A stretch of 64,000 nt of DNA from an uncultured Gemmatimonadales bacterium (lineage in GTDB: Bacteria; Gemmatimonadota; Gemmatimonadetes; Longimicrobiales; RSA9): the NCBI GenBank assembly GCA_963783305.1, contig CAWAMW010000002.1, positions 416,001-480,000 of the forward strand. Direction: 5' to 3'. Position 1 is the stretch's first letter; every line of letters begins with the position of its first letter. Below the pieces are notes generated by a model. The model ran no database searches. It was not told the DNA's origin and saw only the letters and a list, made by a program, of their open reading frames with translations. This document shows positions 28,297-59,160 of this stretch, piece after piece. The position numbers and the translations under genes were made by a program.

Positions 28297-29520
28297 ATGC
28301 CGACCGATCCCCCCGACATCACGCACGCGCTCAAGCGCCGCGCCACCCTCGAGGGGTTCAACCTCGTCGGTGTGGCCGCGCTCCAGGCCAGTGATCATGG
28401 GTCGTTCTATCGCTGGTGGCTGGAGCACGGACTCCACGGCTCCATGGAATACCTGGCTCGCGACGACGCCGTCGAGGCCCGGTTGGACCCGCTCGCCCGC
28501 TGGCCCGAGCTGCGCTCCGCGCTGGTCGTGGCCCACGAGTACGGCACCGCCGAGCCGGGCGATGCCGTCGACCCGCCCGACCGCGGCACCATCGCCCGCT
28601 ACGCCCGCGGCCGCGATTACCACAAGGTCGTGAAGAAGAAGCTGCTCCGGCTCCTCGGCTGGCTCGAGGCGGAGGTCGGACGCGATCTTCCCCACGCGCA
28701 CGCGTATGTGGACACCGGTCCTATCCTCGAACGCGACCTGGCCCGCCGGGCGGGAATCGGCTGGCAGGGCCGCAACACCATGCTCATCAACCCGCGCCGC
28801 GGCTCCTACTTCTTCCTCGGCTCCCTCCTGCTCCCACTCGAGCTGGAGCCCGACGAGCCGTTCACCGCCGACCACTGTGGCACCTGCACCGCCTGCCTCG
28901 ACGCCTGCCCCACCGGCGCACTGCTGGGCCGCGACGAGACCGGCGCGCCGGTCATGGACGCCACCCGCTGCATCTCGTACCTCACCATCGAGAACCGGGG
29001 CGCGATCCCGGAGGAGCTCAGGCCGCTCACGGGCAACCGCATCTACGGGTGCGACATCTGCCAGGAGGTGTGTCCGTTCAACCGTAAGTTCTCACCACCA
29101 GGGGTTGAGCCGGCGTATGCGGCGCGATCCCCGGGAGAATCGCCGTTCGGCGTGCAGCGGGCGCCAGGCTCGTCGTCCTCCCATCCCGGGACGGAGGCGC
29201 CATCATTGATCGCGCTGCTGGAGACTGCACTCGATGAGTCTGCATGGAACTCGTTCTCGAGGGGCTCGGCCATTCGCCGAGCCGGCCGGGCCGGCTTCGC
29301 GCGCAACGTCTGCTTAGCGCTCGGCAACTGGGGATCAGTCGACGCGGTACCGGTGCTGACTCGGGCGCTGTCTGACCCGGAGCCGCTTGTCCGCGCGCAC
29401 GCTGCCTGGGCGCTCGGCCGGATCCCGTCCAGTTCCGCTGCATCCGCACTCGAGGTGCAGGCTGCGAGCGAGTCGGATCCATCGGTCTCGAAGGAGGTCG
29501 CGGCCGCGCTTGGGAGCTGA
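28297..29520 (+). CDS. queG: Epoxyqueuosine reductase QueG
   Basis: ARYARGRDYHKV, VDTGPILERDLARRAGIGWQGRN, CGTCTACLDACPTGA, RCISYLTIE, GCDICQEVCPFN, C-terminal HEAT-like PLVRAHAAWAL. Confidence 0.96.
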   Translation: MPTDPPDITHALKRRATLEGFNLVGVAALQASDHGSFYRWWLEHGLHGSMEYLARDDAVEARLDPLARWPELRSALVVAHEYGTAEPGDAVDPPDRGTIARYARGRDYHKVVKKKLLRLLGWLEAEVGRDLPHAHAYVDTGPILERDLARRAGIGWQGRNTMLINPRRGSYFFLGSLLLPLELEPDEPFTADHCGTCTACLDACPTGALLGRDETGAPVMDATRCISYLTIENRGAIPEELRPLTGNRIYGCDICQEVCPFNRKFSPPGVEPAYAARSPGESPFGVQRAPGSSSSHPGTEAPSLIALLETALDESAWNSFSRGSAIRRAGRAGFARNVCLALGNWGSVDAVPVLTRALSDPEPLVRAHAAWALGRIPSSSAASALEVQAASESDPSVSKEVAAALGS

Positions 29521-29566
29521 CGGCCCAACGGGAAATACAGGCGCATGGGCAGCCTCTTCAGCCAGA

Positions 29567-30652
29567 CTACCCCCGTCTTGTTGTTGGCGCGCTTTCCACT
29601 GGCGATCCCGCATGCGATACCCGCATGCCTCGCTCCACGACGACGTCAGCCATGTCTGCGCCGTCGACGACAATGTCGGCGAAGCGGACCGGCAGGCCCA
29701 TCGCGGAATAGAAATCGGGGCGATCCTGCAGATGGAAATGCAGATGCGGCTCCGTGGAATTACCGGAGAACCCGCAGCGTCCGATGATGTCGCCCTGGCT
29801 GACGCTGTCTCCGACCTCCACCGGTATCGAGCCGGGGATGAGGTGCGCGTAGAAACCGTATTCGCCGTCGGCGTGCCGGATGATGACGTGATTGCCCGCC
29901 AGCTGTGTGGCGAGAAAATCCGGCATGAAGTACCCCGTGAACGGCGACTCGTGGTGCCCGTCGTGGAGCGCCACGATCTCTCCGCCCGCGGCGGCGAGGA
30001 CCGGCTCATCGTAGCAGTGGTAGTCCTCCAGGCGACGTCCGCTGCCGCGGTGCCGCGAGAACGCGGGATCTGCCTTCACGAAGTCATACGCGTAGCGCTG
30101 ATTCAGCACCTGCCATGAGTGGGACGTCTCGGGGCTGTGCCCGCCATGGTATACGAGCCATTCACCTTCCAGTGGAAGGCGATAGGTCACGCGCGTCCGG
30201 TAGTTCGCCACGTCTGTCCCGGCTCCGGCAAGGCGCCGTGACGCGGCCATCTGACCGAACGTGATTCGCAGCTGCTGCACCAGGAGGAACGGGTTGAACA
30301 CCGACAGGAACGTCGATGTGAGGAACGCGGCGGCCTGGCCTGGTCTGCCCGCTCTTCGGATGGGACCCGGCACCGGCCAGTCCAGCGCGGGGTGGCGCGT
30401 CGCCGCGATGGTATCGCTCCTGAAGACGTAGCGCTTGAAGATCCAGTTGCAGACCAGGTACAGGCCGAAATAGAGCGACCAGGAGTAAGCCGCCCCCCAT
30501 TGTACCTGCGCGAAGTGAACGAGGACGTACTGGATCGCCGTCGCTCCGGCCAGCGCGATCGACAAGGGATAAAGCCAACTCCAGAACGAACCGGCACGTC
30601 CGGCTCCCTTTGCGGGACCGGCCGTCGGGCTCTTCTTTCGGTTGGCGTCCAT
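29567..30652 (-). CDS. Membrane-anchored M23 family metallopeptidase
   Basis: N-terminal TM helices; QRYAYDF, VLAAAGGEIV, GNHVIIRH, YAHL, GNSTEPHLHF. Confidence 0.85.
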   Translation of the reverse strand: MDANRKKSPTAGPAKGAGRAGSFWSWLYPLSIALAGATAIQYVLVHFAQVQWGAAYSWSLYFGLYLVCNWIFKRYVFRSDTIAATRHPALDWPVPGPIRRAGRPGQAAAFLTSTFLSVFNPFLLVQQLRITFGQMAASRRLAGAGTDVANYRTRVTYRLPLEGEWLVYHGGHSPETSHSWQVLNQRYAYDFVKADPAFSRHRGSGRRLEDYHCYDEPVLAAAGGEIVALHDGHHESPFTGYFMPDFLATQLAGNHVIIRHADGEYGFYAHLIPGSIPVEVGDSVSQGDIIGRCGFSGNSTEPHLHFHLQDRPDFYSAMGLPVRFADIVVDGADMADVVVERGMRVSHAGSPVESAPTTRRG

Positions 30653-30759
30653 GATCGTCATGTCCCGGGAGTGAGTTGCGGCGCGCGAGGGCAGGTGCGG
30701 GCGGGAGGAATGTCGGGGCTGTTTCGGAGATGAGCAACGCCGTAACGGAAAAGCCGACG

Positions 30760-30936
30760 TGGGACGTCTGGTCGCGCGGCTCTGCGATCCGGCGGGCCGT
30801 CGCGATCGGGAACTGGCTCGCTTCGGTGGACGAGCCGCCGGAAGAGGCGGTGGCGGTGCTGCGGGAGGCGCTGGAGAACGAGGAGGCGCTGGTGCGGGAC
30901 CACGCGGCGTGGGCGCTGGAGCGGGTCGTCGATTGA
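30760..30936 (+). pseudogene. queG 3'-end relic 1
   Basis: WDVWSRGSAIRRA-VAIGNWLASVDEPPEEAVAVLREALENEEALVRDHAAWALERVVD* aligns by eye with QueG WNSFSRGSAIRRA...ALGNW...PLVRAHAAWAL, with an internal deletion. Confidence 0.85.
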
Positions 30937-31302
30937 GCCGAAAACGCATGTGCGGTGTGCACCCCGAGTCTGGCCACGCCCCGCCGGTGCGGAGCGACCC
31001 GGTGCGCCAGGCTCCCGAAGCCCGGTCGCCCCCGTGCGGTCAATGTTCCGGACCTCAGGGCGATGAAGGTCTTCGATCGTCACGGCTTTGGGGTTCCTGC
31101 GATAGGATCCAGTCGGAGCTGTAATGGGAAAGGATGCCGGAATGGACCACCACGATGGTCTCGACAGGCTGGAAGCGACCGACCCCGGCTGGATCGCCTG
31201 CGCGGAGGGGCTGTCGTGAGCCGCGGTTTGTAGGCCCGGGAATCTCGCCCGGGCTCGGGACGCGGCATTCGCGGCCTCGAACCGAACGGTCGAGCGGGTG
31301 GA

Positions 31303-32610
31303 TCAACCCGTCTCGGCCGCCGCCACCGGAATCGTAAAGGAGAAGGTCGTACCCCGCCCAACCTCGCTCTCCACCTCGATCGAGCCCGCGTGTGCCTCCA
31401 CGATGCCGCGCGTGATGGCGAGGCCGAGCCCTGCCCCGCCTCGGCGGACTTCGCTGGATTGCCAGAATCGGTCGAAGAGGTGCGCGAGGTCAGGTGTCGC
31501 GATCCCCGGGCCGTCGTCGGAGACGGTGACTCGCGCTACCTGGCCTTCGCGCATCACCCCGATGGAGATGGTGCCGTCTTCGGGCGTGAACTTGACGGCA
31601 TTGCCCACCAGGTTGGCGAGGACCTGCAGCAGCCTGGCCCGGTCGGCCTGCACGACCAGCCCCTCGCCTTCATCGAAATAGAACTCGTGCTGCGCCGCGG
31701 GGGTGCCCGCGCCGAACATGTCCCGGACCTCCTCGAGTACCGAGCCGATATCGACAGCCTCCAACTGTACCGAGAGCTTTCCCGCCTCGATGCTACTTAC
31801 GTCCAGCAGGTCAGCGACCAGCCGGTTCATCCGGTCCGCTGAGCGGACGATGAGTTGCAGGCTGCGACGCCCTTGATCTTCGACCAGGCCCGCTTCTGCA
31901 ATGAACTCCGCCGCCATCCTGATCGTAGCCACCGGATTGCGGAGGTCATGAGCGACGATACCCATGACTTCATCCCGCATCCGGATGGCGTCTCGCGCCT
32001 GCTGGTAGAGCTGAGCGTTGTCGATGGCGACGGCCGCGCGGCGACCGAGCTCCTCGGCAAGCGCCAGATCCTCAGAGCCGTAGGCCCGTCCGGACTCGGC
32101 TGAAATGAAGCTGATCGCCCCGAGCAGCCGCTCGCGCACAGCGAGCGGAACCGTCATGGATGAGCGAATGTCCGCACTTCGGAGCATTTTGAGGTGAGCG
32201 TCATCCTGCGCCATCTCCACCAGCATCTCGTCCGGGAAGTGCGGTAGCAGCTCCGATCGGCCGGTGCGCAGTACCTCGAAGGGAGAGCGAGGCAGTGCGT
32301 CGATGGACGAGTATTCTCCCAGCGCGGTCCGAGCCCGCTCGGCAGACTCGGCATCGACATGGGCGATCGTCGCTACCCGGACCCCCCGTGCCTCGTCCAC
32401 CAGAAAGATTACACACCAGTCGGCGAGCGCTGGAATGAACAGCCCGAGGCCCTGGCGGATGGTTGCTTCGTAGTCGAGCGTAGACGCCAGGACCCGCCCG
32501 GCTTCGACGAGGAGGTCGGTCGCGGACCGCTTAGGGTGGGATTCTGAGCCGTCGTCGTGAGACGCCTGCATGCCTCCCGCGGAGGCGACCGGACGCTCTC
32601 CCAACTCCAT
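31303..32610 (-). CDS. GAF-domain sensor histidine kinase
   Basis: GAF domain (ASTLDYE, LADWC, RRAAVAIDNAQLY), H-box VAHDLRNP, NLVGNAVKF, DDGPGI, GAGLGL. Confidence 0.93.
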   Translation of the reverse strand: MELGERPVASAGGMQASHDDGSESHPKRSATDLLVEAGRVLASTLDYEATIRQGLGLFIPALADWCVIFLVDEARGVRVATIAHVDAESAERARTALGEYSSIDALPRSPFEVLRTGRSELLPHFPDEMLVEMAQDDAHLKMLRSADIRSSMTVPLAVRERLLGAISFISAESGRAYGSEDLALAEELGRRAAVAIDNAQLYQQARDAIRMRDEVMGIVAHDLRNPVATIRMAAEFIAEAGLVEDQGRRSLQLIVRSADRMNRLVADLLDVSSIEAGKLSVQLEAVDIGSVLEEVRDMFGAGTPAAQHEFYFDEGEGLVVQADRARLLQVLANLVGNAVKFTPEDGTISIGVMREGQVARVTVSDDGPGIATPDLAHLFDRFWQSSEVRRGGAGLGLAITRGIVEAHAGSIEVESEVGRGTTFSFTIPVAAAETG

Positions 32611-32919: not shown

Positions 32920-33062
32920 TCGGTCGCCGCGCTCGACCGCGCCGGTGTGACGCTGCTGGCGGCCAGCGGCCCGCCGACGGGGAACGTCGTGCACGGCGTC
33001 GGCCTGCTGCAGGAGTTCGAACTGCTGATCCAGGCCGGGCTGACCCCTGCCGAGGCGCTGAG
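32920..33062 (+). pseudogene. Amidohydrolase C-terminal fragment
   Basis: SVAALDRAGVTLLAASGPPTGNVVHGVGLLQEFELLIQAGLTPAEAL resembles the AGV.ILAGTD...LH.EL.LLV.AGLTP.EAL motif; the rest of the gene is absent. Confidence 0.7.
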
Positions 33063-33149
33063 TTCCGCGATGCGCTGGAGGATCCGGAGCCGCTGGTGCG
33101 GGAGCACGCGGAGTGGGCTCTGGGGGAAGCTGGAGCAAGCCTCGAGTAG
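33063..33149 (+). pseudogene. queG 3'-end relic 2
   Basis: FRDALEDPEPLVREHAEWALGE versus QueG TRALSDPEPLVRAHAAWALGR. Confidence 0.75.
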
Positions 33150-33239: not shown

Positions 33240-33800
33240 CTACACCATGGACGCGACGATCTGCGACCGGTAGTGCCCCGGCTCAACGGCGGCCACCGCC
33301 ACCCCGAACCCACTCAGTTCCGCCGCCAGGCCATCCGTGTACGTTTCGAGGCCGTGCTTGCTCATGCTGTACGCCCGCCGAGCGGCCCGGTCACGATGCC
33401 GGCGATCGACGTCACGTTCAGGACCCCGACCCCGGCTGTCCAGGAGCAGGTCGGCGAACCCCTTCGTGACCCGGTACGGCCCCATGAGGTACACGTCGAG
33501 CTGGTAGTCCACGACCTCTTCCGGCATTTCGATCAGCTGCTCCATGGTGGAGATTCCGGCGTTGTTGGTCAGGCCGTAGAGGCCCCTGCCCTGCTCCTCC
33601 ACGAAGGCGACGGCCGCGTCGATGTCGCCCAGGACGGTCACGTCCAGCCGGACCGCCGGCACGTTCGGCATGGCGTCCATCCGCGCCATCTCCTCAGGCG
33701 TGCGAGCGCCCGCGTACACGTGAAAGCCGCTCCGGGAGAGGATCTCGGTCATCTTCAGGCCGATGCCGGACGTGGAGCCCGTGACCAGGACCGCCCGCTC
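33240..33800 (-). pseudogene. Short-chain dehydrogenase/reductase, degraded
   Basis: RAVLVTGSTSGIG, NNAGI, YSMSK, VEPG; no start upstream of the Rossmann motif, two compensating frameshifts near 33375-33430, early TAG at 33240. Confidence 0.8.
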
Positions 33801-33855
33801 AGCGCCTCAGGGTCGGCCATCGCCACCGGCTCACCAACTTCGTCGAGCGCCGCTT

Positions 33856-34479
33856 CTACCGGAACGGGTATAGGGAGAGCCCGATATGGAGGCGGACGCC
33901 GGCCAGGCCAATGTCCACGTCGACGGTGCTACCGGCGACCTCGCGCTCCATCAGGCTTCCGGCCGTGAACGACGCAGCACCTTCCACCGCGATGCTCGGG
34001 GCGAGGAAGTACAGCATACCGCCCCCCAGCGAAGCACTGATTCCGCCATAGGTGACCTCGTCCTTATTGAGATCGTCGAACCAGAGTCCGACAATGTTCG
34101 CCTCGGCCTCGAGAAACGGCACCCAACGGCTCTCCCGGCGGAAGTGGAACCTGCCACCCGCGTCGATGAGCAGGAGCCCGTAGCTCTCGCCGGTGGGCAG
34201 GCTCTCGAAGCCGTCGCCTTCCGATATGGACGCGCCCCCCACGCCAATGTAGGCCGTGAACCGCTCCGAGAACCCGTAGCCGGCGCGCACGCCGAATCCT
34301 TCACCCGTGCCATCGCCGCCGCCCTTGTACGCAATGCCGTAGCCGCCCGTTCGTGCGCTCAGATACACGCCCTCCGTGTTGGATGCGTCCGAAACGGCCT
34401 GGGCACCGACGGCCGTCGGCAGGGAGAGCATGGTCAGCAGGATCGCCAGTCGGGCCGTCCAACTCGTTCGTGTTCTCAT
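33856..34479 (-). CDS. Outer-membrane beta-barrel protein (8-stranded type)
   Basis: AAAGGAG RBS, signal peptide, GFGVRAGYGF, RWVPFLE, terminal GLSLYPFR. Confidence 0.78.
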   Translation of the reverse strand: MRTRTSWTARLAILLTMLSLPTAVGAQAVSDASNTEGVYLSARTGGYGIAYKGGGDGTGEGFGVRAGYGFSERFTAYIGVGGASISEGDGFESLPTGESYGLLLIDAGGRFHFRRESRWVPFLEAEANIVGLWFDDLNKDEVTYGGISASLGGGMLYFLAPSIAVEGAASFTAGSLMEREVAGSTVDVDIGLAGVRLHIGLSLYPFR

Positions 34480-34591
34480 TGTGCAGATCTCCTTTGGTTG
34501 AGTTCGAGGGAAATCTGCGTCGATCCTGCACCGGCCGGATGGGCCCGGAGGTGTATTCGGGGGTGTAAATCGAGTGTGCAGCCTCGCCCTC

Positions 34592-37270
34592 TCAGAGCAG
34601 GCGGAGCGCGTTGGCCTTCGCCACCGCCTCCGTCCGGTGCGTGGCGCCGAGCTTGGCGTAGATGTTGGCGACGTGTCGCTTCACGGTGGACGTGCTGATG
34701 AAGAGCTGGTCCGCTATCTCCCTGTTCTTGAGGCCGGCCGCGACGAGGCGCATGACCTCCACCTCCCGAGGAGTGAGCGGGCTTTCGAGCTGCTGTGCCA
34801 GACGGGGGGTGTTCTCCGACCCGACCACGGCCGAGTGCAGTCGCCGGGCGATCGCGCGGCGGGCTCCTCGAGCGACGACCTCACGCAGCCACGGCCTCAG
34901 CGGGGAACCGTCGCGCATGAACACGCCGTGGAAGCGTTCGGCCGCGCCAAGCTCCAGCGCCCGGTCCAGGCAGGCGCTGGCGGCCCCGTCGTCCTGGTGG
35001 AACGCGTGAAATCGGGTCTGGAGGATCAGGATCTCGATCTGACTGCCGACGCGGTCGCCCGACTCGGCGGCTTCGAGCAGCCGGTCGAGCAGCCGGGCGA
35101 TCTGGTCACCGGGCACCTCGCCGCGCTCGAGGCGAGCCAGCCAGAGTCGCGCCAGCGTGATGAGCTCGTACTCGCGGAGGAACTCCGCGTCGTCCTGCAG
35201 CGAAAGCCCGTGCTCTTCCGCCCACGCCTCCACCTCTTCGAGACGGCCGAGGCCGATCAGGATCCGCGCCCGGCGTGCAGGCACGGGCACGGTCTCGGGA
35301 ATCTGGGTGTGCTGGTAGCGACGATCCGCCTTCGCGAGCCACTCGAGCGCGCTTTCGGGATCGCCGCGCGCTTCAGCGAGGGCGGCCATGGCCATGCACC
35401 AGCGGTAGGATCGTTCCTCTTCCGGCGCTTCGGAACAGGCCAGCAACTGGGCCTCGGCGTCCTCCTCCTCCCCTCGCTCCAGCAGGACCTCGGCGAGTCC
35501 GCAGCGAGCTTCCATCATCCTCGACGGGCTCTCGTGCTCGAATCCGAGGGCGTGCTCGTAGCGGGCCGCCGCTTCGGACAACCTTCCCTGGGCGTACAGG
35601 ATCTCCGCGATCGCGTACGTCGCTCTGTGCTGGTACGGTATGTTGCCGGCCAGGCGGTAGCTGTGGAGGGCCTCGTCGAACGACCGGCGAGCGTCGGCCA
35701 ACTCTCCCCGTGACCACTGGGCGAGCCCGAGGATCACGGCAGGGATCCCGTGGAAGAACGGGTCGTCTTTCGGAAGCAGGTCGAGAGCCCGGCGCGCATG
35801 CCGTTCGGTCGCTTCCCTGTCGCCCCTCGCCTGTGCGACATAGGCGCGGGCGGCGGCGAGGGTGCCGGCCAGCGACCGGAACTGCTCGGCGTCGGCCACG
35901 ATCATCCCATTCGTTTCCGCAGGGTCCAGCCAGCGTTCGGCGGAGTCAAGGTAGGGCTCACCCTCGTTGAACCGGCCGGCGTCCAGGAGTGCCCAGCCGT
36001 AGCCGAGACTCAGGACCGGCCTGTGCGGGAGCACGTCCGGGGGAAGAGCTTCGGCCCACCCGAGCCACGTCCCGGGCTGGAACCGCCGATCCATGACCCT
36101 CCACGCCCGCTCGACCGTATCCGCCGCCCGATCGACATCGCCGGATTGCAGGGCGTGGCGAACGGATTCCGGGATGAACCCGTTCGCCTCGTACCATCCG
36201 CTCGCGTGCACGTGCAGGTCCTGAACGAGAGCTGGATCATCGCGGATCAACCGCGCGCGTAACACGTCCGCGAACAGGTGGTGGTAGCGGTACCACTCGC
36301 GCCGCTCGTCCAGCCGGACGATGAACAGGTGCCCCCGCTCCAGCTCTTCCAGGACCGCGGCACTCCGGCGCCCGCCCGTTACCGCGTCGCACAAAGGGCC
36401 GCACATCCGCTCCAGTATGGACGTGCGCAGCAGGAAGTCCTGGACCTCCTGCGTCTGTCGGTGGAGCACTTCCTCGACCAGGACATCGGCAATGTGGCGG
36501 TGGTCTCCCGAGAAGGAGCCGACGAAGCTGCCCATGTCCTCCCGTCCCCGCATGGAGAGCGCCGCGAGCTGCAGCCCGGCGATCCAGCCCTCCGTCCGCC
36601 GCTCGAGGGCGTCGACGGCATCGGCAGGGACATCCAGCCTCATCAAGTCGTTGAGGAAGGCCGCGGCTTCGGTTGCGGTGAAGCGAAGGTCGGCGGGAGT
36701 GACCTCCACCAGTCGACGCTGCCCGCGGAGTCGGCCCAGCGGGAACGGTGGCTCCGAGCGGGACGCGATCACGAGGTGGACCTGGGGCGGGACGTTGTCC
36801 ACGAAGAAGGCCATGCCGTCATGGATTCGCCGATCCTCAATGACGTGGTAGTCATCGAGGAGGATTGTGACGTCGTCGCCGAGCGTGGCCAGCTCGTTGA
36901 TCAGCGCCGTCAGAATGGTCTGGAGCGGAGGAGGCTCCGGAGCGAACAGCATGGCGAGTGGCCGATCGCCGACGTTCGGATCCAACCGTTGCAGGGCCGT
37001 GAAGAAGTAGGCCCAGAAGATCGTCGGGTCGTTGTCAGCCCGGTCGAGCGAGACCCAGCCGGCGGGGCCGTCGCGCTGCGACAGCCATTCGGTCAGCAGC
37101 GTGGTCTTGCCGAACCCCGTCGGCGCCGTCACCAGCGTCAGTGGCTGACGAGCTCCTTCGTCCAGTCGGGCGATGAGCCGTGAGCGCATGAGGTGCGCGG
37201 AGTCCTGTGTCGGGGCGAAGAGCTTCGTCGAGAGAAGCTGGGCCCTCTCTGCGGCCGCGGTCGTGGGCAT
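34592..37270 (-). CDS. MalT-like STAND ATPase / LuxR-family transcriptional regulator
   Basis: [40 protein letters not shown] region, C-terminal LuxR HTH (LTPREVEVM...[14 protein letters not shown]). Confidence 0.93.
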
Positions 37271-37402
37271 CAGCGTGGGCGGGTTCAGGCGTGGCCGAGC
37301 AATGAACTGAAGGACTTCCGGACCTTACGAGTGGACGACGGTTGCAGCAAGCCGAGCCCGGATTGATCGGGCGCGGTTGCCTCACCCGCCGGTGCGGAGA
37401 GC

Positions 37403-50410: not shown

Positions 50411-50441
50411 GGGCAGCGCTCTCCTTGGGGGGGATCGGGGA

Positions 50442-50807: not shown

Positions 50808-50829
50808 ATGTGATAATACTGTCACATAT
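50806..50829. promoter_or_regulatory. Palindromic operator, probable ArsR autoregulatory site
   Basis: Perfect ATATGTGA-N8-TCACATAT overlapping the arsR start codon, between divergent genes. Confidence 0.8.
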
Positions 50830-50871
50830 TGCGCGCGTCAAGGTGTTTCCCCCCGGATTCCGGAGGCAGCG

Positions 50872-51267
50872 ATGGGCAGGATGATCATTGCGGTTGTGGC
50901 GGGCGCGGTGGTGTGGGCCGCGCTCTGGCTGGGTGGCAATCAGGCCGCCATGGCGGCGTTCCCGGCAGCCATGCAGCCGGAGACGGCCATCACGAGCGTG
51001 GGCGTGCTCCTCGGGCTCATCCTCTACGGCGGCGTGCTCCTGTCGCTGCTGGCGGGCTGGACCACGGGGAAGATCTCGCGGGCCATGAAGCCTGTGTGGG
51101 TACTGGCGGGTGTCCAGCTTATGTTCGGCATCATTGCCGAGGTGAGCTACTGGAGCCTGACGCCGGTATGGTACCACGTGGTCTTCCTGGCGCTCATCGT
51201 GCCCATGACGGTGTTGGGCGGACGCAGGGCGGTGGGTGGCGCCCCTCCGCCCCCCGTCAGTCCGTGA
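50872..51267 (+). CDS. Hypothetical membrane protein (4 TM helices)
   Basis: GGAGG RBS; hydrophobic helices; PVWYHVVF. Confidence 0.75.
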   Translation: MGRMIIAVVAGAVVWAALWLGGNQAAMAAFPAAMQPETAITSVGVLLGLILYGGVLLSLLAGWTTGKISRAMKPVWVLAGVQLMFGIIAEVSYWSLTPVWYHVVFLALIVPMTVLGGRRAVGGAPPPPVSP

Positions 51268-51530
51268 GTGTCTGGAGGTAGGTATGGAGCGCGGCGATCT
51301 CCCCCTCGTGGAGACGGCTGATCCGCCCCGTGGCGATCTCGCTCATGAGCCCCTTTTCCAGGCCCTCATCGCTGACGTTGGCGAACATGGCGGAGGGCAT
51401 GATCACCACACTCGACCCATCCGGTCGGACGCCGTGGCGAATGACCGCTTCCAGCTCCTGGTCAGAATACTCGTGCACGATCCGTGTCAGGTTCGGGGCG
51501 ACGATCCGGTCCCCCACCGGCGAGGTGAAG
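51257..51530 (-). pseudogene. Internally deleted cytochrome c fragment
   Basis: APNLT...YSDQELEAVIRHGVRPDG...MPS and EIAALHTYLQTL resemble diheme cytochrome c segments, but no CXXCH remains. Confidence 0.6.
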
Positions 51531-51830
51531 AACCAGGCCGAGCCGAATCACGCAAGGATCGCGTGGTCCGGGGGGGATTTTGGGGTACCGGGTTGGGATG
51601 GGCACGTGGGCCTCTCACCCCGGGGCTCCTCAACACGGCCGTGGGGCCCGAAATTGCAGGCTTCCTGCGGGGATCCTCGCCATGAGTGTGGGCGCCATCT
51701 ACGGGGTCCTGCCGTGGGCCGGATCCCTCGTGCCCGCGGTCGGCGTGGTGGCGATCGTATTCGGGCTCGCCCTCACCGTGCGCGCGGTGATGAGATAGGA
51801 GCTGCGGTACAGTGATCAGGAGAGTGAGGG

Positions 51831-52337
51831 ATGCGGACAACGTTTATTTTGATTCTCGCGATCGCCGCTGGCGCGTGCGGCAATGAACCGGAGTCCGCCG
51901 CGGCAGAGGCGGGTGCCGAAGACTCCGACTTTGCGGCCCTCCAGGAGCGCGGCGCCGCACCGCAGGGGATGGGAGTCGACCAGTACAGATCGATGCACAC
52001 CTTCGATGATCTGCCCGACGGGGGCCGGATCGAGCTTCAGGACACGGCGGGCGATGACGACGCCGTGGAGCGGATCCGGACGCACCTGCAGGGGATCGCG
52101 GCCGATTTCGCGAGCGGGGACTTCAGCACCCCCGGCTTCGTTCACGCAATGGACGAGGTTCCCGGTACGCGCGTGTTGGCCCAGCGGAAGGACGCCATCC
52201 GTTACACGTACCATCCACTCCCTCGAGGTGGTATGGTCCGGATCGAGACGGAGGACGCGGCGGCCGTCCGGGCCGTCCACGAGTTCCTGGCCTTCCAGCG
52301 TCTCGATCACCGGGCCATGGGGCACGACGGGCCCTGA
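51831..52337 (+). CDS. Hypothetical lipoprotein
   Basis: AGAC lipobox; MGVDQY.SMHTFDDLPDGGRIEL, RTHL, AVHEFLAFQRLDH. Confidence 0.8.
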   Translation: MRTTFILILAIAAGACGNEPESAAAEAGAEDSDFAALQERGAAPQGMGVDQYRSMHTFDDLPDGGRIELQDTAGDDDAVERIRTHLQGIAADFASGDFSTPGFVHAMDEVPGTRVLAQRKDAIRYTYHPLPRGGMVRIETEDAAAVRAVHEFLAFQRLDHRAMGHDGP

Positions 52338-52385
52338 TGCCGTCACCGGGCGCCGCCCCCGTGGTGGTGAGCGGAAGCCTGCGCG

Positions 52386-52450
52386 TGGATCTTTCCGGTC
52401 GTCCGTGGAACATCCGGGCCGCTGCGACCGTTGCCAATCCGGCGCTTTGC
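52386..52450 (+). pseudogene. Possible further queG relic (weak)
   Basis: TGG ATC TTT (WIF) followed closely by CGT CCG TGG AAC ATC CGG (RPWNIR), like QueG WIFGCD...CPWN; short and degraded. Confidence 0.35.
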
Positions 52451-52520
52451 CTCTGGATCGTGCTGACGCTGGCCTAGCCGGCGCCGGCTCGAGCCGGATA
52501 CAGGACGGACAGGCCGATCG

Positions 52521-53516
52521 CTACGGCTTCCGTTGCTCCTCGATGAACCGTCTCGCGCTCTCCGGCAGCAGCAGATCGTCGGAGATGGCCGCCACCTCCT
52601 CGGCGGCCTCCCACGCGCGCTCCAGACGCCAGAGCTCGCCCTCCAGCGCCCGCCGCTCCTGCTCCTCGTGCAGCGCCATCTCCACCGCCAGCTTCGTGAC
52701 CGTCGGCATCTTGTTGACGTAGCCGGGAATCCCCTTCTTGTCCGCGAACCGGTCGCCCTGGGCGATCAGGCGCAGGAACTCGTCGGGGTGGCGGTGGTCC
52801 TCGATCTGGTGCACGGCCTCCTGCACCGTTTGCCGCTTCCCGCCCCTTGAGTTCATTTTCGGCAGCACCAGCCCCGCCACTCGCCGCGCCTCCTCCCCCT
52901 CGAACCACCTCTTCTGTCGCTTCTTCCGAATCTCGATTCCGAACCCGAGCTCGTCATCCGTGGCCCGCAGCCGCGTGCCCAGGAGGTCGGGGTTCTTGAG
53001 CTTGAGGACGTCGCCGTCCTCCGTCCGGAGCTTCAGGCGGGTCCGGCCCTGGGACCACAGATTCACGAAGTTGCCGGTCTGGGCGAACAGGCCAGCGCTG
53101 ATGGCGCCCGTGACCGCCCCGCCGATGACCACGGCCCCGATTACCACGACCCCGCCCACGCCGTACACGATCGCCCGCTTTCGACGCCGCCCGAACTGGT
53201 CGCCATAGCGCCATGCGGCGAATTCGGGCCGCTGGGGCCGCCCGATCCGCACCAGCTCCAGCCCCTCGGCATGCCGCGCGATCCCGATGTTCTCCGTGGA
53301 GGCGCGCACGCGTGTACCGCGGAAGATCCGCTCCAGCGTCTCCACCGCCTCCCAGCGCTCTTCGATGGGGCTCAGGTTCCACCGCTCGCACGATCGGCAG
53401 ACGACCCAGAGCCGGCCCCGCTCCGGGTCGAACGCCAGCCGTCGACCCACGGGGAATGTCTCCACCACCTCGTTGGCTCCGAGCGGGCGGCTACAGAAGA
53501 TGCAGGTGCGGTACAT
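52521..53516 (-). CDS. Hypothetical protein with N-terminal zinc ribbon and a central TM segment
   Basis: CIFC...CRSC; hydrophobic GVGGVVVIGAVVIGG; GGAG RBS; coding-like composition. Confidence 0.8.
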   Translation of the reverse strand: MYRTCIFCSRPLGANEVVETFPVGRRLAFDPERGRLWVVCRSCERWNLSPIEERWEAVETLERIFRGTRVRASTENIGIARHAEGLELVRIGRPQRPEFAAWRYGDQFGRRRKRAIVYGVGGVVVIGAVVIGGAVTGAISAGLFAQTGNFVNLWSQGRTRLKLRTEDGDVLKLKNPDLLGTRLRATDDELGFGIEIRKKRQKRWFEGEEARRVAGLVLPKMNSRGGKRQTVQEAVHQIEDHRHPDEFLRLIAQGDRFADKKGIPGYVNKMPTVTKLAVEMALHEEQERRALEGELWRLERAWEAAEEVAAISDDLLLPESARRFIEEQRKP

Positions 53517-53732
53517 GGGGCTCTCCTACGGTTCCGGTGGCTTCTGCCGAATACGCACCGACCCCGCGGGAGGCTTCAACGCCCGCGCTGGCCGCGGTCG
53601 ACTGAGCGGGCGCTGGACCGGCCCCTTCCGTCGGCGCATGAGCGGGACTGAATTCGAGGGACCCCCGCGCCGGGAGGCCCGGGGGTAGGGTAGCGACACA
53701 CCGCCGCCGCGTTGTCCGGTTGAGCCGCCGCG

Positions 53733-56249
53733 CTACTCGTGGCGGAGTGCCTCCATGGGGTCCACCCGGGAAGCCCGGAAGGCCGGAACGTACCCGGCGC
53801 CGAACGCCACGCCCGCCAGCAGCATCACCGCGGCCACGAATACCATGGGGTCGTGGCCATCGAGCTCGTAGAGGAGCGACCCTGCGGCCCGGCCGAGGCC
53901 CAGGGCGGCCGCGATACCGATCACGCCGCCGACCCCGAGCATCCCGGCCACCTGGCGGAGGACCATCCCCCGCACCTTCGCCGTGTCGGCGCCCAGCGCC
54001 ATCCGGAGCCCGATCTCACGGGTCCGAAGCGCCACCGTATAGGCCAGCACGCCGTAGAGCCCGATGGCGGCGAGGAGTGTGGCCAGGACCGCGAACGCCG
54101 TGGTCAGGATGCTGATGAAGCGGTCCATGAACACGCTCTCCGCGGCCTGCTGCTCCAGCGTCATCAGCCCGCTGACCGGCATGTTGGGGTCGAGCCGACG
54201 GAGCACGCCGGGCACGGCCTGGAGGATGGGCCCCGGGTCGCCGGCCGTCCGGATGTAGAAGTTCATGAAGCCCACGTCGGCGTCCTGTGCGTGCGCGAGC
54301 AGGAACACCGGCGGCATCTCGTCCTTCACGCTGTTGTACTTGGCGTTCTGGGCGAGGCCCACGATCTGGATGGTCAACGAGTCGGCGCTGGTGCGGCTGT
54401 TCAGCGCCATGAACGAGCCCACCACCTCGCCGCGCGCCAGCCCGAACTTGTCGGCGAACGCCTCGTTCACGATGGCCGCCGTGTACCCGCCGCCGGGGCC
54501 GTCACGCCGGTCGAACTCACGCCCCGCGATGAGGGGGATCCCGAGGGTGCTCAGGTAGTCCGCCCCGACCTCGTTGTAGTACGAGGTCTGGTCCACGTCC
54601 GGCCCGCCCTCGAACCCCTGCACGGCCACGCCCGCGATATTGGCGCTCCCCTCGAGGGCCGGGATTATGCTGGACGTCACGCCTTCCACGCCGGGCAGCG
54701 ACAGGAGCTCCTCGCGCAACCGCTCGAAGAGGATGCGCGACCGCTCGCCGTCGTAGCCGTTGAGCATGGGCGCGATCGCGAACTTCGCCACGTTGTCCGT
54801 GCGGACGCCCAGCTCCACGCGGCTGATGTTGCCCAGGCTCCGGATGAACAGCCCTGCGGCCACCAGCAGGGTGACGGAGAGCGCGATCTGGACGGTGACC
54901 AGCCCCTGCCGGAACCGGGCGGCCGACCGGGACCCCGACGTCTGACCACTGCCACTCCTGATCGCCGTGACCAGCGTGGCCCGCGTCGCGTGCCACGCCG
55001 GGTAGAGTCCGAACAGGATACCGGTGCCGAGGGCGACAGCCGCCGTGAACCCGATCATGGACGGGCTCAGCTGGAGGTTCAGGATCGCGCTCTGCTGGTC
55101 CGGCAGGATCGATGCGATTCCCCAGAGCGTGGCCCGGGCCACGGCCAGGCCCGCGAGCCCACCGACCACGGCCAGCACCATCGCTTCCGTCAGCAGTTGA
55201 CGCAGGAGCTGGCCGCGGGTGGCCCCCATGGACCCGCGCACCGCCATCTCGGTGTTCCGGCTGGCGCCCCTGGCCAGGAGCAGGTTCGCGATGTTCGCGC
55301 ACGCGATCAGGAGAACCAGCGCCGTGATGCCGAGCAGGAGCACCAGCGGTGTGCGGGATTCCTCGTGCACGCTGCTCTGTCCCTGCTGCCCCGGCTCCAG
55401 CACCACCCGCTTCTCCTGGAACTGGGCCAGCGTCTGCTCACTCAGCCCCTCCTGGAGCGGCGCTTCGACCTCGTTGATGATCGACGCGTACACCCGGTTG
55501 GTCCTCGCCGAGGCCTGCTCCAACGTGACCCCCGGCTCCAGACGGCCGAAGACGTAGATCCAGTACGAGCGACGGTTCTCGAAGTCGTTTCCGGACCACG
55601 GCTCCATCTGGCCACGCAGCGTCAGCGGAACGAACACGGCGGGCTGCGGCCCCAGCGTGGTGCCATCGAAACCCCGGGGCGCCACGCCCACCACCGTCAA
55701 CGTCACGCCGTTCACCACCATGGCACGGTTGAGCACGCCCGGGTCGCCGCCCAGGTTGTTCTGCCAGAACCGGTGGCTCAGGACCGCCACCGTGTAGTCG
55801 CCGCCCACCTCGTCGTCCGCCGGCTGAAGAAGGCGCCCCAGCGCCGGCCGCAGACCCAGCAGCGAGAAGTACGACCCCGACACCATCACACCCTCTCCAT
55901 CCACCGTCCGGTCACCCTGTGCGATGTTAGCGCCAAAGGTCCGGTGGCCGGCCAACCCGGCGAACCCGGTCTCCTCGGCGGCCTGCAGGTCCCGGAACAT
56001 CGGGTAGCTGAATACGGTCTCGCAGCCGCCGGCCTGGTTGCACGTCGACCCCCCCGGCTTCGGCCCCGGCGCCTCCAGGTTCACCAGCCGGTCCGGCTCC
56101 GCGACCGGCAGTGGCCGCAGGAGGATCTGGTCGAAGATGGAGAAGATCGCCGCGTTCGCGCCGATCCCCAGCGCCAGCGAGAGCAGGGCGATCACGGTGA
56201 TGAACGGCGTCTTCACGAGCTTCCGGACGGCGAGCCTGATGTTGGTCAT
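53733..56249 (-). CDS. ADOP-type duplicated MacB/FtsX ABC permease
   Basis: LALGIGANAAIFS, LLIACANIANLLLARG, RTREIGLRMALGA, RASRVDPMEALRHE. Confidence 0.93.
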   Translation of the reverse strand: MTNIRLAVRKLVKTPFITVIALLSLALGIGANAAIFSIFDQILLRPLPVAEPDRLVNLEAPGPKPGGSTCNQAGGCETVFSYPMFRDLQAAEETGFAGLAGHRTFGANIAQGDRTVDGEGVMVSGSYFSLLGLRPALGRLLQPADDEVGGDYTVAVLSHRFWQNNLGGDPGVLNRAMVVNGVTLTVVGVAPRGFDGTTLGPQPAVFVPLTLRGQMEPWSGNDFENRRSYWIYVFGRLEPGVTLEQASARTNRVYASIINEVEAPLQEGLSEQTLAQFQEKRVVLEPGQQGQSSVHEESRTPLVLLLGITALVLLIACANIANLLLARGASRNTEMAVRGSMGATRGQLLRQLLTEAMVLAVVGGLAGLAVARATLWGIASILPDQQSAILNLQLSPSMIGFTAAVALGTGILFGLYPAWHATRATLVTAIRSGSGQTSGSRSAARFRQGLVTVQIALSVTLLVAAGLFIRSLGNISRVELGVRTDNVAKFAIAPMLNGYDGERSRILFERLREELLSLPGVEGVTSSIIPALEGSANIAGVAVQGFEGGPDVDQTSYYNEVGADYLSTLGIPLIAGREFDRRDGPGGGYTAAIVNEAFADKFGLARGEVVGSFMALNSRTSADSLTIQIVGLAQNAKYNSVKDEMPPVFLLAHAQDADVGFMNFYIRTAGDPGPILQAVPGVLRRLDPNMPVSGLMTLEQQAAESVFMDRFISILTTAFAVLATLLAAIGLYGVLAYTVALRTREIGLRMALGADTAKVRGMVLRQVAGMLGVGGVIGIAAALGLGRAAGSLLYELDGHDPMVFVAAVMLLAGVAFGAGYVPAFRASRVDPMEALRHE

Positions 56250-56503
56250 GGTGTACCCGGTCGAATGGGAACGGACGTCGCACAGTTGGACGGCCCGGAC
56301 GGGCCGACGGTTGTATCGGCGGTGCGGGGCCCGCGTGCCGGTGCCCGTGCCCGGGACTGAACGCACTCCGGGCGAACCCGCTCCGAGCGCTGCGGCCGGG
56401 GCCGGGGGTGACCGGGACCGGGTCGGGCCCCATATTGGTCCCGCTCTGAACCGATCCATGACATCCCGGCCAGGGTCCGGGACCTCGAGGAGGATTCGTC
56501 ACG

Positions 56504-57556
56504 ATGAGACCGCTGATGCTCGCCGCCACCACTCTGGCCCTAGGCTTCGCCGGGTCGCTCGCCGCCCAGGACGCCGCGCCCGACACGGCGTACGCGCCGG
56601 GCGACTACGCGGTCTTCACCGGGGCCGGCGAGCGCGCGACCCTGGAGGACGTCATCGCCGCCATGGCGGACGTGGGGGTGGTCTTCATCGGCGAGACCCA
56701 CGACGACCCGACGGGCCACGCCCTCGAGGCGGAGCTGCTGGAGCGGGCGGTGGAGACGGCCGGCCGGCCTGTCGCCCTCTCACTGGAGTTCTTCGAGCGC
56801 GACGTCCAGCCGGTGCTGGACGAGTACCTGGCGGGGTGGATCAGCGAGTCGTCGTTCACCGATGCGAGCCGGCCGTGGCCCCGCTACGACTCGGACTACC
56901 GCCCGCTCATCGAGCTCGCGAAAGAGCGTGGAATCGACGTGGTCGCGGCCAACGCCCCGCGGCGCTACGTGAGCCGGGTCACGGCCCACGGCCGGGAGGC
57001 GCTGGACAGCCTGCCTCCGTCCGCGCTCGAGCACCTTCCACCCCTCCCCTACGGCCAGCCCTCGCCCGAGTACCGGGACCAGTGGATCGGCGTCATCTCC
57101 GCGGTGATGGAGCAGGAGGGGACGCGGTGCGGGCTGCCCGTCGCCGACTCCCAGGCTGTGGCGCCCATGGGCACCCACGCGAACATGGGCAATCAGCTCC
57201 ACGCCCAGGCGCTCTGGGACGCGTCCATGGCGTGGTCCGTCGCCGGGTACCTCCGGGCGCACCCCGACGCCCTCGTCCTCCACATGGTCGGCGGGTTCCA
57301 CGTGGCCCGCGACACGGGAATCCCGGAGCATCTGCGCGCCTACCGGCCGGACACCCGGGCGCTCATCGTCATGCTCCGGCCCGTCCACGACATCGGCGCG
57401 TTCGAGCCCGCCCCCGCCGGGGAGTGGGGCGATTTCGTGATCCAGACGGACGTGGCGCGCACCCTCGAAGCCATCGAATGCCGCGCCTACCGCTGCCCTA
57501 CGGCCAGCCCTCGCCCGTGTACCGGGACCAGTGGATCGGCGTCATTTCCGAGGTGA
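56504..57556 (+). CDS. ChaN-family exported protein; C-terminus altered by a downstream duplication
   Basis: Signal peptide, VVFIGETHDD, LSLEFFERDVQPVLDEYLAG, DYRPLIE, QALWDASMA, VGGFH. Confidence 0.85.
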   Translation: MRPLMLAATTLALGFAGSLAAQDAAPDTAYAPGDYAVFTGAGERATLEDVIAAMADVGVVFIGETHDDPTGHALEAELLERAVETAGRPVALSLEFFERDVQPVLDEYLAGWISESSFTDASRPWPRYDSDYRPLIELAKERGIDVVAANAPRRYVSRVTAHGREALDSLPPSALEHLPPLPYGQPSPEYRDQWIGVISAVMEQEGTRCGLPVADSQAVAPMGTHANMGNQLHAQALWDASMAWSVAGYLRAHPDALVLHMVGGFHVARDTGIPEHLRAYRPDTRALIVMLRPVHDIGAFEPAPAGEWGDFVIQTDVARTLEAIECRAYRCPTASPRPCTGTSGSASFPR

Positions 57557-58017
57557 TGGAGCAGGAGGGGACCCGGTGCGGCCTGCCCGTGGCCGATTCG
57601 CAGGCGGTGGCACCCGTGGGCGCCCACGGGAACATGGGCAACCAGCTCCAGGCCCAGGCGCTCTGGGACGCGTCCATGGCGTGGTCGGTCGCCCAGTACC
57701 TCCGGGCCCATCCGGACGCCCTCGTCCTCCACATGGTCGGCGGGTTCCACGTGGCCCGCGATACGGGCACTCCGGAGCACCTGCGCGCCTACCAGCCGGA
57801 CGCCAGGACGCTGATCGTCATGCTCCGGCCCGTGGACGACATCGCTGTGTTCGAGCCCGCGCCGTCCGGGGAGTGGGGCGACTTCGTGATCCAGACAGAC
57901 GCAGCGCGGACCCTCGAGGCCATCGAGTGCCGCGCCTACCGCGCGGAGCGGGCCGGCGCGCCGGCCACCAGCGGCGGCGGGGGCGAAATACGGCAGGGGC
58001 TGCGGGCGCCAGGGTGA
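57490..58017 (+). pseudogene. Diverged tandem duplicate of the 3' half of the ChaN gene
   Basis: 57490-57942 repeats 57041-57493 (offset 449 nt, out of frame) with many substitutions, and has its own stop at 58017. Confidence 0.85.
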
Positions 58018-58049
58018 TCCGGATCATGCGCGCTCCGCGTCGATCACTC

Positions 58050-58490
58050 AATAACGAGCGGTTCGTCCAGGTCACGGACGAGCGGGACTACCAGGCGGAG
58101 TGCCGGAAGGCGGAGATCCACTGAGGCGCCGATGGACCTGCCGGGGGCGCCGACGGACCTGCCTGAGGCGCCGACGGACCTGCCGGGGGCGCCGACGGAC
58201 CTGCCGGGGGCGCCGACGGACCTGCCGGGGGCCGAGTCGCTGTCACTCGCCGAGTTGATCCAGCTGACGCGGGAAAAGTAAGAGATCTGAGGCAGGGGTC
58301 GGCGATCGCCTGCGGGGTACACGGGCTTCGAACGCAATATCGCGGTGGCGATGGGATCCACGAGGTGATCGCGGGGGTGGTCCGGCGACCTGGCTGACCC
58401 CGGTGAACGAGCCGTCGGACAGGCGGTGGCTGCGCTACGCGAGGTGCTGGAGGACGAGAGCGTGCGTGTACGGGAGCGCGCGGCGTGCCG
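58050..58490 (+). pseudogene. queG 3'-end relic 4 (longest)
   Basis: NNERFVQVTDERDYQA...DLPGAESLSLAELIQLTREK*EI*...GSAI..AGYTGFERNIAVAMG...WLTPVNEPSD.AVAALREVLEDESVRVRERAA, with stops and frameshifts. Confidence 0.85.
58125..58229. repeat. 21-nt tandem repeat x5 (GGCGCCGACGGACCTGCCGGG)
   Basis: Units at 58125, 58146, 58167, 58188 and 58209, three of them identical; reads APTDLPG in the relic frame. Confidence 0.92.
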
Positions 58491-58575
58491 CTTCGGCAAG
58501 AAAGGATCGATCGGGAGTAGCCGTCGGCGTTTTCGGGCTAGCGTGTCTCATCGGCGGGTTGTGCGTGCGTCGCCC

Positions 58576-58750
58576 GGTGTTCGCAGCCATGGTCGGCCGG
58601 TGTGAGGCGAAGGGCTGCAAAGGCCATGAGTATCCTGGTGTTCGCAGCCACGGATGTGCCTCCGGGCATCCGCGGCGGCAGACTCCATGACCCTCATGGG
58701 GTTCGCAGCACTGGGTCCCCGGGCGGACCACCCGGGCTGCGTCCACCACG
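58576..58750. repeat. Array of 37-bp imperfect palindromes with 24-nt spacers (period 61)
   Basis: Half unit GGTGTTCGCAGCC at 58576-58588; GGCTGCAAAGGCCATGAGTATCCTGGTGTTCGCAGCC at 58613-58649; GGCGGCAGACTCCATGACCCTCATGGGGTTCGCAGCA at 58674-58710; half unit GGCTGCGTCCACCACG from 58735. Confidence 0.75.
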
Positions 58751-58788
58751 TGGCCGAAAGCCGCGCGGGAGTGCTCCCAGCTTCCCGA

Positions 58789-58925
58789 CACGAGCCCAGT
58801 TCGGCCCTGTCTACCCTTCGCGACCGCCCGTGATGCTCCGCTCATCCGACTGCTGACCACGTTCGTTCTCGTGCAGGAAGACATGCTTCGGGAGCCAATC
58901 CTCTATCTCTCGATCTTCTTCAGCG
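58789..58925 (+). pseudogene. Fic/DOC family fragment
   Basis: RLLTTFVLVQEDMLREPILYLSIFF matches the helix following the Fic HPFxDGNGR motif, which is degraded upstream. Confidence 0.6.
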
Positions 58926-59080
58926 CCATCGGCAGAGCTACTCCGATCGGTTGCACGGCCAATGATAGGGAGAATGGCAGGAATGCTTCCGCAACGTGCG
59001 GCATATGGTCTCCATGGTGGGAGCACCCCGGGGCTGAGAACGGCCCGCTCCGGTCGTCCTCTCTCGATGGCCGGTGCTCA

Positions 59081-59160
59081 GGCGGCACATCCAGCCGGGA
59101 GGTGTATCCGTGGAACGCGCCGAAGCTGGTGGCGCTGACGCGGGACCCGGACTCCCACCG
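59081..59160 (+). pseudogene. queG relic 5 (spans the CPWN junction)
   Basis: GGCGGCACATCCAGCCGGGAGGTGTATCCGTGGAAC aligns with queG GGGTGCGACATCTGCCAGGAGGTGTGTCCGTTCAAC; reads EVYPWNAPKLVALTRDPD. Confidence 0.7.

Follow-up and report, generated by a model that had tools for sequence, protein, structure and literature searches.

Evidence for a large serine recombinase that probably integrates elements within queG of Gemmatimonadota and leaves arrays of displaced gene tails

Introduction

Several described integrases are changed by their own integration, as set out in the available portions of the sources cited here. The single serine integrases directed at rumA in streptococcal integrative and conjugative elements as well as integrative and mobilizable elements (IMEs) carry the attachment (att) site inside the integrase gene, and integration alters their C-terminus (PMC4701971). 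In the 'suicidal' integrases of the Sulfolobus spindle-shaped virus (SSV) type, attP lies in the integrase open reading frame (ORF), the att site is translated, and hybrid integrases are possible after tandem insertion (PMC7253208). Integration of the myxophages Mx8 and Mx9 replaces the integrase C-terminus and changes its activity (PMC6070905, PMC4701971). Accretion is described for IMEs and cis-mobilizable elements (CIMEs): integrase and transfer genes are lost, attL and attR are kept, and new elements stack at the same site (PMC5704250). Mobilizable islands also integrate at the tRNA-modification genes dusA and trmE, the trmE integrase (SGI1) being a tyrosine recombinase (PMC8409611). The subject here is a stretch of 64,000 nt (the window) from an uncultured Gemmatimonadales bacterium (assembly GCA_963783305.1, contig CAWAMW010000002.1, positions 416,001 to 480,000), in which queG, encoding epoxyqueuosine reductase, is followed by decayed queG 3' ends (relics) separated by other genes. 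Comparison with relatives suggests, with a probability of about 0.87, that a Gemmatimonadota family of elements encoding a large serine recombinase (LSR) integrates in queG at a CA dinucleotide, that the relics are decayed attR scars, and that the window holds an old array.

The rumA integrases and the queG LSR are alike in being large serine integrases with an RNA-modification gene as target and an att site that lies, or appears to lie, inside the integrase gene. In the rumA systems the genes exchange 3' parts with a change of frame and rumA is counted as disrupted, according to the available parts of the reports (PMC4701971, PMC5704250), whereas the queG elements appear to supply a full in-frame replacement tail on the strand opposite the integrase, with QueG restored and a conserved peptide as the severed end. 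The SSV type comprises archaeal tyrosine recombinases that are split into two inactive pseudogenes, identical tandems not having been seen in the material available (PMC7253208). The queG enzyme, unlike these, belongs to the serine family, keeps its whole predicted folded core (residues 1-564) in one piece and commonly occurs with tandem arrays, which places it outside the suicidal type. The Mx8 integrase is a model for the peptide switch proposed below, but it is a phage tyrosine integrase, and neither a replaced protein-coding host tail nor double coding is described in the available parts of those sources. Unlike known CIME accretion, the queG arrays combine up to six same-strand arms within 17 kb, LSR-less modules common to different species and a coding tail at each junction. 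The dusA and trmE sites lie at gene ends (5' of dusA, 3' of trmE), whereas the serine integrase would cut about 60% into queG. Integrons, as commonly understood, share with these arrays a fixed entry site, the newest module in first place and small modules that look promoter-independent and are common to species; the arrays differ from integrons in having a serine and not a tyrosine enzyme, no resident integrase at most of them and a coding gene as entry site. An integron with a resident IntI tyrosine recombinase beside attI is not what is found here, the enzyme being an LSR and the window's contig holding no PF00589 match.

Each principle has a precedent, in the SSV, Mx8 and rumA integrases and in CIME accretion, and what seems new is queG as the target, the gene-restoring double-coded tail and cassette-like arrays with a serine integrase that has attP in its gene. 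Literature searches gave no description of queG as an integration target or of a double-coded tail, most subscription papers lying outside the searched text, and nothing on Gemmatimonadota genomic islands with a serine recombinase or on a serine recombinase with an antisense overlap. A survey of LSRs mentions neither queG nor queuosine in the available portions of its preprint text (10.1101/2021.11.05.467528) and eight supplements (PMC10083194), whose target tables may be incomplete.

Results

Displaced queG tails in the window

Genomes are given G numbers and att loci L numbers where they have to be told apart. The features on which the argument rests are as follows.

28297-29520, plus strand: queG, intact (TIGR00276, Pfam); host 5' part with a probably element-supplied tail, the putative attL state
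29062-29520, plus strand: probable replacement queG 3' tail, apparently double-coded (QueG in sense, integrase extension in antisense), from the open antisense frame and the similarity to G004
29051-29074, plus strand: putative attL core with the crossover dinucleotide CA (29062-29063) between imperfect 11-bp inverted arms, from the base-frequency switch and the palindrome centre
29043-29600, minus strand: LSR gene remnant in which the antisense extension, up to a stop at 29043-29045, continues the frame of the last ~27 core codons (29517-29600)
30727-30936, plus strand: relic 1, a short-type tail without its first ~250 nt (48.8 bits; 79% amino acid identity to a G003 tail)
33063-33149, plus strand: relic 2, the last HEAT repeat only, joined to a gene fragment (23.2 bits)
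38265-38436, plus strand: relic 3, VCPWN joined through an internal deletion to the AVAMGNW..HEAT end (29.4 bits, translation, blastn)
57983-58500, plus strand: relic 4, a putative decayed attR with the element arm (57983-58051), then a short-type tail (32.2 bits)
59068-59160, plus strand: relic 5, a putative decayed attR with the inner arm, a junction near 59095 and ~20 tail codons (blastn to L094, E 9e-12)

The queG product reaches 327.8 bits against TIGR00276 (cut-off 200). GC content at third codon positions is 0.91 in the 5' part of the gene and 0.76 in the tail, and the tail is 78% identical in nucleotides to an LSR-adjacent tail of G004. A profile built from 29 QueG C-termini, among them that of the window, was compared with the six-frame translation of the whole 4.35-Mb genome. 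The best four matches apart from queG itself were 30751-30945 (48.8 bits), 58207-58563 (32.2), 38291-38425 (29.4) and 33063-33140 (23.2), all on the plus strand and all downstream of queG. The next match was an Fe-S protein on another contig (22.3 bits), and HEAT-repeat-like matches scored at most 18.1 bits. For these four relics, the placement downstream of queG that a first-pass annotation of the window had proposed from the sequence alone is thereby confirmed.

That annotation listed six relics, and five of them hold by profile or blastn. Relic 5 (59075-59131) was overlooked by the profile and is 86% identical over 57 nt to the att arm and tail of another genome (E 9e-12), whereas the sixth, at 52386, was rejected: it has no blastn match in the fetched loci, ~0 bits against the arm hidden Markov model (HMM) and an arm alignment within the random range. 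Relics 3, 4 and 5 were also said to start at or next to the GCDICQEVCP(W/F)N codons; a shared boundary near the second Fe-S motif stands, but it falls at the CA with which the Gln codon behind GCDIC begins, and GCDIC itself is absent from the relics. Relics 1, 3 and 4, mutually 76-83% identical, are closer to the short tails of other genomes than to the resident tail and are therefore, as had been suspected, not copies of it. Relics 1-4 resemble such short tails, with best local matches of 74-91%; relic 2 matches a relic of G003 at 91% over 57 nt. The 5' parts of relics 1 and 2 are gone. A possible arm remnant of relic 1 (30727-30758) scores inside the random range, whereas the relic 4 arm aligns with a score of 41 against a random maximum of 37 (60 windows), its tail holding a 21-bp tandem repeat and stops.

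The junction and its distribution among relatives

In 41 genomes compared, extra 3'-only queG matches lie downstream of queG on the same strand in G011, G017, G013, G010, G028, G025, G032, G023, G005 and others. Many begin at one base, behind a conserved sequence that is not queG (the arm). This 5' boundary, common to relatives, bears out the earlier proposal of repeated site-specific insertion at the second Fe-S motif, and the displacement of older tails by repeated insertion is likewise upheld, along with cargo that differs between genomes. The crossover was mapped by comparing base frequencies at 105 attR sites and 87 queG genes. At position -1, C is found in 94 of the 105 arms and G in all 87 genes, and at +1 the attR sites have C99/G6/T0 as opposed to C65/T22 in the genes; from +2 onward the two sets agree. 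Among 55 arms outside the seed pattern, +1 is C52/G3. Inverted symmetry is maximal around +2/+3 (7.9 of 11 pairs), and the CA at 29062-29063 begins the Gln codon of GCDIC|QEVCP. Arm and gene cease to be identical one base left of the CA, which fits a 2-bp core of the serine type; judged from the alignments, strand exchange probably takes place at this CA, as expected for a serine recombinase, and inverted arms around a putative 2-bp crossover are what an LSR att site should have. A position-weight scan of the window's own genome found no intact arm.

A pattern of one exact arm and QEVCP, run over 185,579 species genomes, gave 60 stretches, 52 of them titled as Gemmatimonadota taxa; five lacked both arm and queG and were discarded as chance, and three were short or unnamed records from other bins having both. 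In L066, L081 and L097, arm and queG tail occur in records titled Acidobacteriota, Tepidiformaceae and 'bacterium', which reflects either spread beyond the phylum or mis-binned contigs. A similar pattern in a class sample occurs in 9 of 401 genomes (reversed control 0), a floor in that the pattern misses known sites. All 20 arms that share a fetched locus with an intact queG are on its strand and downstream, many loci having been fetched downstream on purpose; an inverted arm in L086 is an exception of orientation. The architecture is present in the single-contig genomes G090 and G092. A metagenome scan yielded three partial loci and no attP circle.

The large serine recombinase

No integrase was found among 126 scanned cargo ORFs, and a PF07508 search of 54 genomes placed an LSR next to queG in some. 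With the intact G090 protein as query, LSR matches were obtained in 27 of 331 genomes of the order: 22 abut the queG tail convergently on the opposite strand, one lies near a fragment, and the remaining four are paralogues of 26-31% identity with no queG within 1.5 kb. A candidate for the missing enzyme is thereby found. A class-wide search with one LSR homologue (P0012) returned mostly antisense-queG matches and one further intact element, in G480. The protein carries PF00239 (resolvase) above the cut-off and PF07508 (Recombinase). Y24, R26 and S28 of the catalytic Y-x-R-x-S are invariant in 42 sequences, as are the zinc-ribbon residues C332, C335, H356 and C376, PF13408 itself giving no match. 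Long helices, as expected of a coiled coil, are predicted at residues 401-511, and the top Foldseek matches are serine integrases, with the serine-integrase fold predicted in residues 1-564.

The first-pass annotation had seen no integrase in the window. It overlooked the remnant at 29517-29600, as well as the identity of the enzyme as an LSR antisense to the tail and the probable position of attP within the LSR gene. This stump is the best of 8,707,058 six-frame windows of the genome under a matrix built without the window's genome and G004; it scores 12.4 bits, and a broader full-length HMM failed to detect so short a piece.

LSR-bearing elements measure ~9-39 kb; among their genes are those for relaxase, for partition and of defence type. 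An IME has its own integrase together with a relaxase or oriT and lacks a mating pore, whereas a CIME consists of att sites only. The G140 element has LSR, MobA/VirD2 relaxase and ParB, and that of G130 has ParA/ParB; the scanned ORFs of G090, G536 and G148, from a crude ORF caller, gave no relaxase match. Serine integrases recombine attP with attB and depend on a recombination directionality factor for excision; an HTH_17-like ORF, below the cut-off, lies 5' of the G148 LSR. The window's own modules fit CIMEs. Defence-type cargo of young LSR elements (L171, L124, L227-L228, L137/L224) includes HamA with a DEAD helicase, subtilase with an AAA ATPase and Mrr, a SMODS nucleotidyltransferase, an N6 methylase, HerA and kinases.

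A probable attP site within the integrase gene

The LSR gene has no stop before the queG tail; it runs through the tail in the antisense frame that shares wobble positions with queG and stops at or shortly past the junction. In the window, this frame is open from the LSR remnant across the tail to five codons beyond the junction. The junction motif forms the C-terminal end of 40 of 48 database homologues, including that of the cultured Gemmatirosa kalamazoonensis (AHG89847.1). In a test of 54 queG genes with 500 synonymous shuffles as null, 15 of 16 LSR-adjacent tails were free of stops in the antisense frame (1 stop vs 6.8±2.2 in the shuffles), and the 38 other tails, among which one frameshifted LSR-adjacent tail was counted, had 22 stops vs 24.0±4.0.

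In the arm, on the other side of the attR junction, this antisense frame goes on to specify E(M/V)CR...IPLxTGxRT. Among 97 non-redundant arms, a stop stands at codon 25 in 40 (TAG 29, TGA 8, TAA 3), Gly15 is kept in 88 using all four codons, and Leu12 in 87 with mixed codons. Stops in codons 1-16 number 4 in the peptide frame, compared with 47 and 39 in the two alternative antisense frames. The ratio of nonsynonymous to synonymous polymorphism is 0.35-0.6 at codons 9-19 vs 0.86-1.5 in the other antisense frames, codons 20-24 being neutral. Two homologues of one 90% cluster, P0049 and P0046, are near-identical up to ..GQTSW and then continue with host-type and arm-type sequence, respectively, after the junction Trp. 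The integrase frame thus crosses the att site and ends differently before and after integration, the full-length attP form not having been recovered. These observations suggest that attP lies within the integrase gene, that integration would exchange the C-termini of both QueG and the LSR, and that the LSR of the circular form would have as its C-terminus a conserved peptide of 24 residues for which the other att arm codes.

By analogy with Mx8, the chances are about even that the arm peptide tunes LSR activity or directionality; it may be the ancestral LSR C-terminus. A single-sequence fold of the deleted G092 LSR with its peptide gave a mean-confidence (pLDDT) value of 40, and the predicted complex of LSR core and arm peptide scored 0.30 against a mark of 0.32, a prediction made without folded controls. 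Two distant LSR paralogues that are not at queG (L210, L214) end, by eye, in a hydrophobic strand with Gly/Arg resembling the arm peptide.

Chimeric queG genes, modules and arrays

For 49 queG genes, the tail tree contradicts 10 of the 13 splits that have support in the 5' tree, compared with 1 of 10 when the two 5' halves are set against each other, which sustains the earlier idea that C-termini are swapped. Two queG genes of the same genus differ by 14% in the 5' part and by 50% in the tail. The short-type tails (L015, L016, L010, L045, L032) form a clade, with support of 0.978 for the first four, and are found across genera.

Between junction and arm, 52 modules of 1.0-13.3 kb were delimited, and arrays have up to six same-strand arms in 17 kb. 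LSR-less modules of 1.6-2.6 kb recur end-to-end in different species; three such sets are 94-95%, 90% and 99% identical over cargo and arm. L118 and L073 each hold two diverged copies of one LSR-less module type within a single array. LSR-less modules and short tails could have travelled by LSR action in trans, by co-excision with an autonomous neighbour or by homologous recombination.

Discussion

Target position, architecture, double coding, conservation of the peptide, two natural LSR C-termini and the sharing of modules can be read directly from the sequences compared. LSR catalysis, the circular attP and the order of events are what we infer, as follows. An LSR clade would insert IME-like elements into queG, with the exchange at the CA that opens the Gln codon behind GCDIC. 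In its circular form, attP would be made up of the 75-nt arm, CA and a queG 3' tail of ~400-500 nt, followed by the LSR gene on the opposite strand, whose frame in the circle would run back through the tail and end in the arm-encoded 24-residue peptide and a stop. Integration would form attL from the host 5' part of queG and the in-frame element tail, restoring QueG and leaving the LSR to stop at or shortly past the junction without its peptide, and attR from the arm and the displaced previous tail. Because attL still resembles attB, the next element could enter at the same site, shifting the previous tail and its cargo downstream with the newest first. Decay of the integrases would then leave arrays of CIME-like modules, of which the window would hold an old one, with no fewer than five tails displaced and a stump of 27 codons left from the last integrase.

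Several observations weigh against this account. An LSR trace is present in only 6 of 52 modules, and a search without a positive control detected no LSR in 10 genomes with arrays, most of them drafts. The window's genome has no PF07508 match, and the search there for a resident or in-trans integrase gave only three tyrosine recombinases, all on other contigs. Short-type tails, relics 1, 3 and 4 included, meet an antisense stop ~18 codons from the junction and are not followed by an LSR, which leaves their carrier unexplained by the LSR model; no recombinase was found behind short-type tails in 73 genomes of the family (30 loci inspected). As 24 of the 38 tails without an adjacent LSR are also open, openness alone is weak evidence. 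The antisense extension is predicted to be disordered, P0046 is partial with a diverged arm peptide, none of the 48 homologues is a full-length LSR ending in that peptide, and a peptide-profile search gave only six short ORFs of 82-113 amino acids. Contigs of four runs compared with the G090 attL showed no excised circle, attP or attB joint, contigs being prone to drop rare forms. Phage or plasmid carriage was rejected, viral contigs having no att matches and no LSR relatives and plasmids having none. Approximately unbiased topology tests rejected the control too and were not used, and the related genomes are not independent of each other. One tail copy in G017 lies far from queG, and another relic of that genome (L033:6245, minus strand) retains GCDIC behind a different sequence in place of the arm. 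This sequence resembles a tRNA/tmRNA 3' end, and the relic is perhaps the mark of a second integrase system or a chimera.

The first of these points would be accommodated if homologous recombination had built most of the array. In that case LSRs founded the layout of arm and tail, and the LSR-less modules and short tails came on transferred chromosomal DNA through crossovers in the 5' part of queG and in the divergent tails, site-specific recombination playing no part. The 46 of 52 modules and the 10 array genomes without an LSR favor such a course, as do short tails that cannot host a read-through integrase and copies of one module whose cargo and arm are 94-95% identical and whose tails diverge more in their first part. 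Against this, module ends coincide precisely with the CA junction, the arms are intact, and a module's rank in the array varies between species, and tails are just 76-83% alike, which is low for RecA. As the arm, the peptide and the convergent LSR would also stay unexplained, homologous recombination is improbable as the main builder.

Still less credit can be given to a tyrosine recombinase, a Xer system or an IS91-/IS110-like transposase as the maker of the junctions, with the LSR as a passenger. Y2, IS110, IS21 and IS3-type transposases do occur in some modules and a tyrosine recombinase in the G014 island, but none recurs at a constant position. The LSR, by contrast, borders the tail in 22 genomes, and its reading frame is also that of the arm. 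The end of arm-gene identity one base left of the CA also fits a 2-bp serine-type core, and the three tyrosine recombinases of the window's genome are on other contigs. Relic 2, with its one HEAT repeat, and the non-significant relic 6 might recall a chance resemblance between HEAT repeats, a local tandem duplication of queG itself or an error of assembly. The comparative data have already refuted all three: the relics outscore the HEAT-repeat-like matches of the genome, they are closer to tails of other species than to the resident one, and the layout recurs in the single-contig genomes G090 and G092, with the read-through protein in a cultured isolate (AHG89847.1).

Integration by the LSR as set out above would add a protein-coding integration hotspot in a widespread and genetically little-studied phylum, and the LSR clade, which has a member in a cultured strain (AHG89847.1) and a natural target of high conservation, might serve as a tool for genome engineering. 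As attL resembles attB and attR resembles attP, the usual four-site logic of serine integrase directionality is strained here, and the severed peptide is a testable candidate for its control. The overlap would also be a natural case of a long antisense gene overlap maintained by selection, and QueG phylogenies and annotations in Gemmatimonadota would be chimeric. More tentatively, and with the odds somewhat against it, the system may be a serine-recombinase counterpart of the integron across Gemmatimonadota, with queG as entry site, small LSR-less modules that pass from species to species as cassettes and are mobilised in trans by visiting LSR elements, and an integrase that regulates itself by amputation. 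The arm peptide would then be needed for integration, lost on insertion and restored at every internal junction of a new arm with an older tail and LSR, and the C-terminal third of QueG would be a horizontally circulating part under a double-strand coding constraint.

Cargo and surroundings of the window array

By Pfam, the cargo genes between the relics are unrelated.

29567-30949, minus strand: module 1 cargo, M23 peptidase (ORF limits; the true start is probably further in)
31303-32610, minus strand: module 2 cargo, GAF histidine kinase
33240-37996, minus strand: module 3 cargo, short-chain dehydrogenase fragment, beta-barrel protein, MalT-like regulator and a further ORF
38700-57556: module 4 cargo, OmpA protein, acyl-CoA dehydrogenase, S15 peptidase, AHSA1/ArsR pair, MacB/FtsX permease and ChaN
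59198-63999: further island cargo, SpoIIAA-like protein, MacB/FtsX permease and ArsP permease

Module 4 is possibly several fused modules. Parts of the island recur elsewhere: 53722-56330 matches cargo adjoining a G003 relic at 95% identity, 44222-45226 matches att locus L090 at 92%, and 62244-63870 matches G003 DNA 3' of queG at 82%. Directly 5' of the relic 4 arm (57400-58017), the 3' end of the ChaN-family gene (56504-57556) can be seen by eye to occur a second time in diverged form. Similar gene fragments at 32947-33062 and 38479-38580 adjoin relics 2 and 3, the first without an NCBIfam match; both presumably resemble amidohydrolase C-termini. Two full-length queG copies occur in G010 (contigs C21 and C89), and on contig C29 of G074 two queG matches extend upstream of the junction. 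A multiheme cytochrome c gene cluster (18695-28243) lies immediately upstream of the window's queG on the opposite strand. Past the right edge, at the equivalent of 64480-64880, PSLxELL-like and VREHAxW-like pieces with a 9-bp tandem repeat between them (5.3 bits) form a possible seventh relic, and the island probably continues beyond the window.

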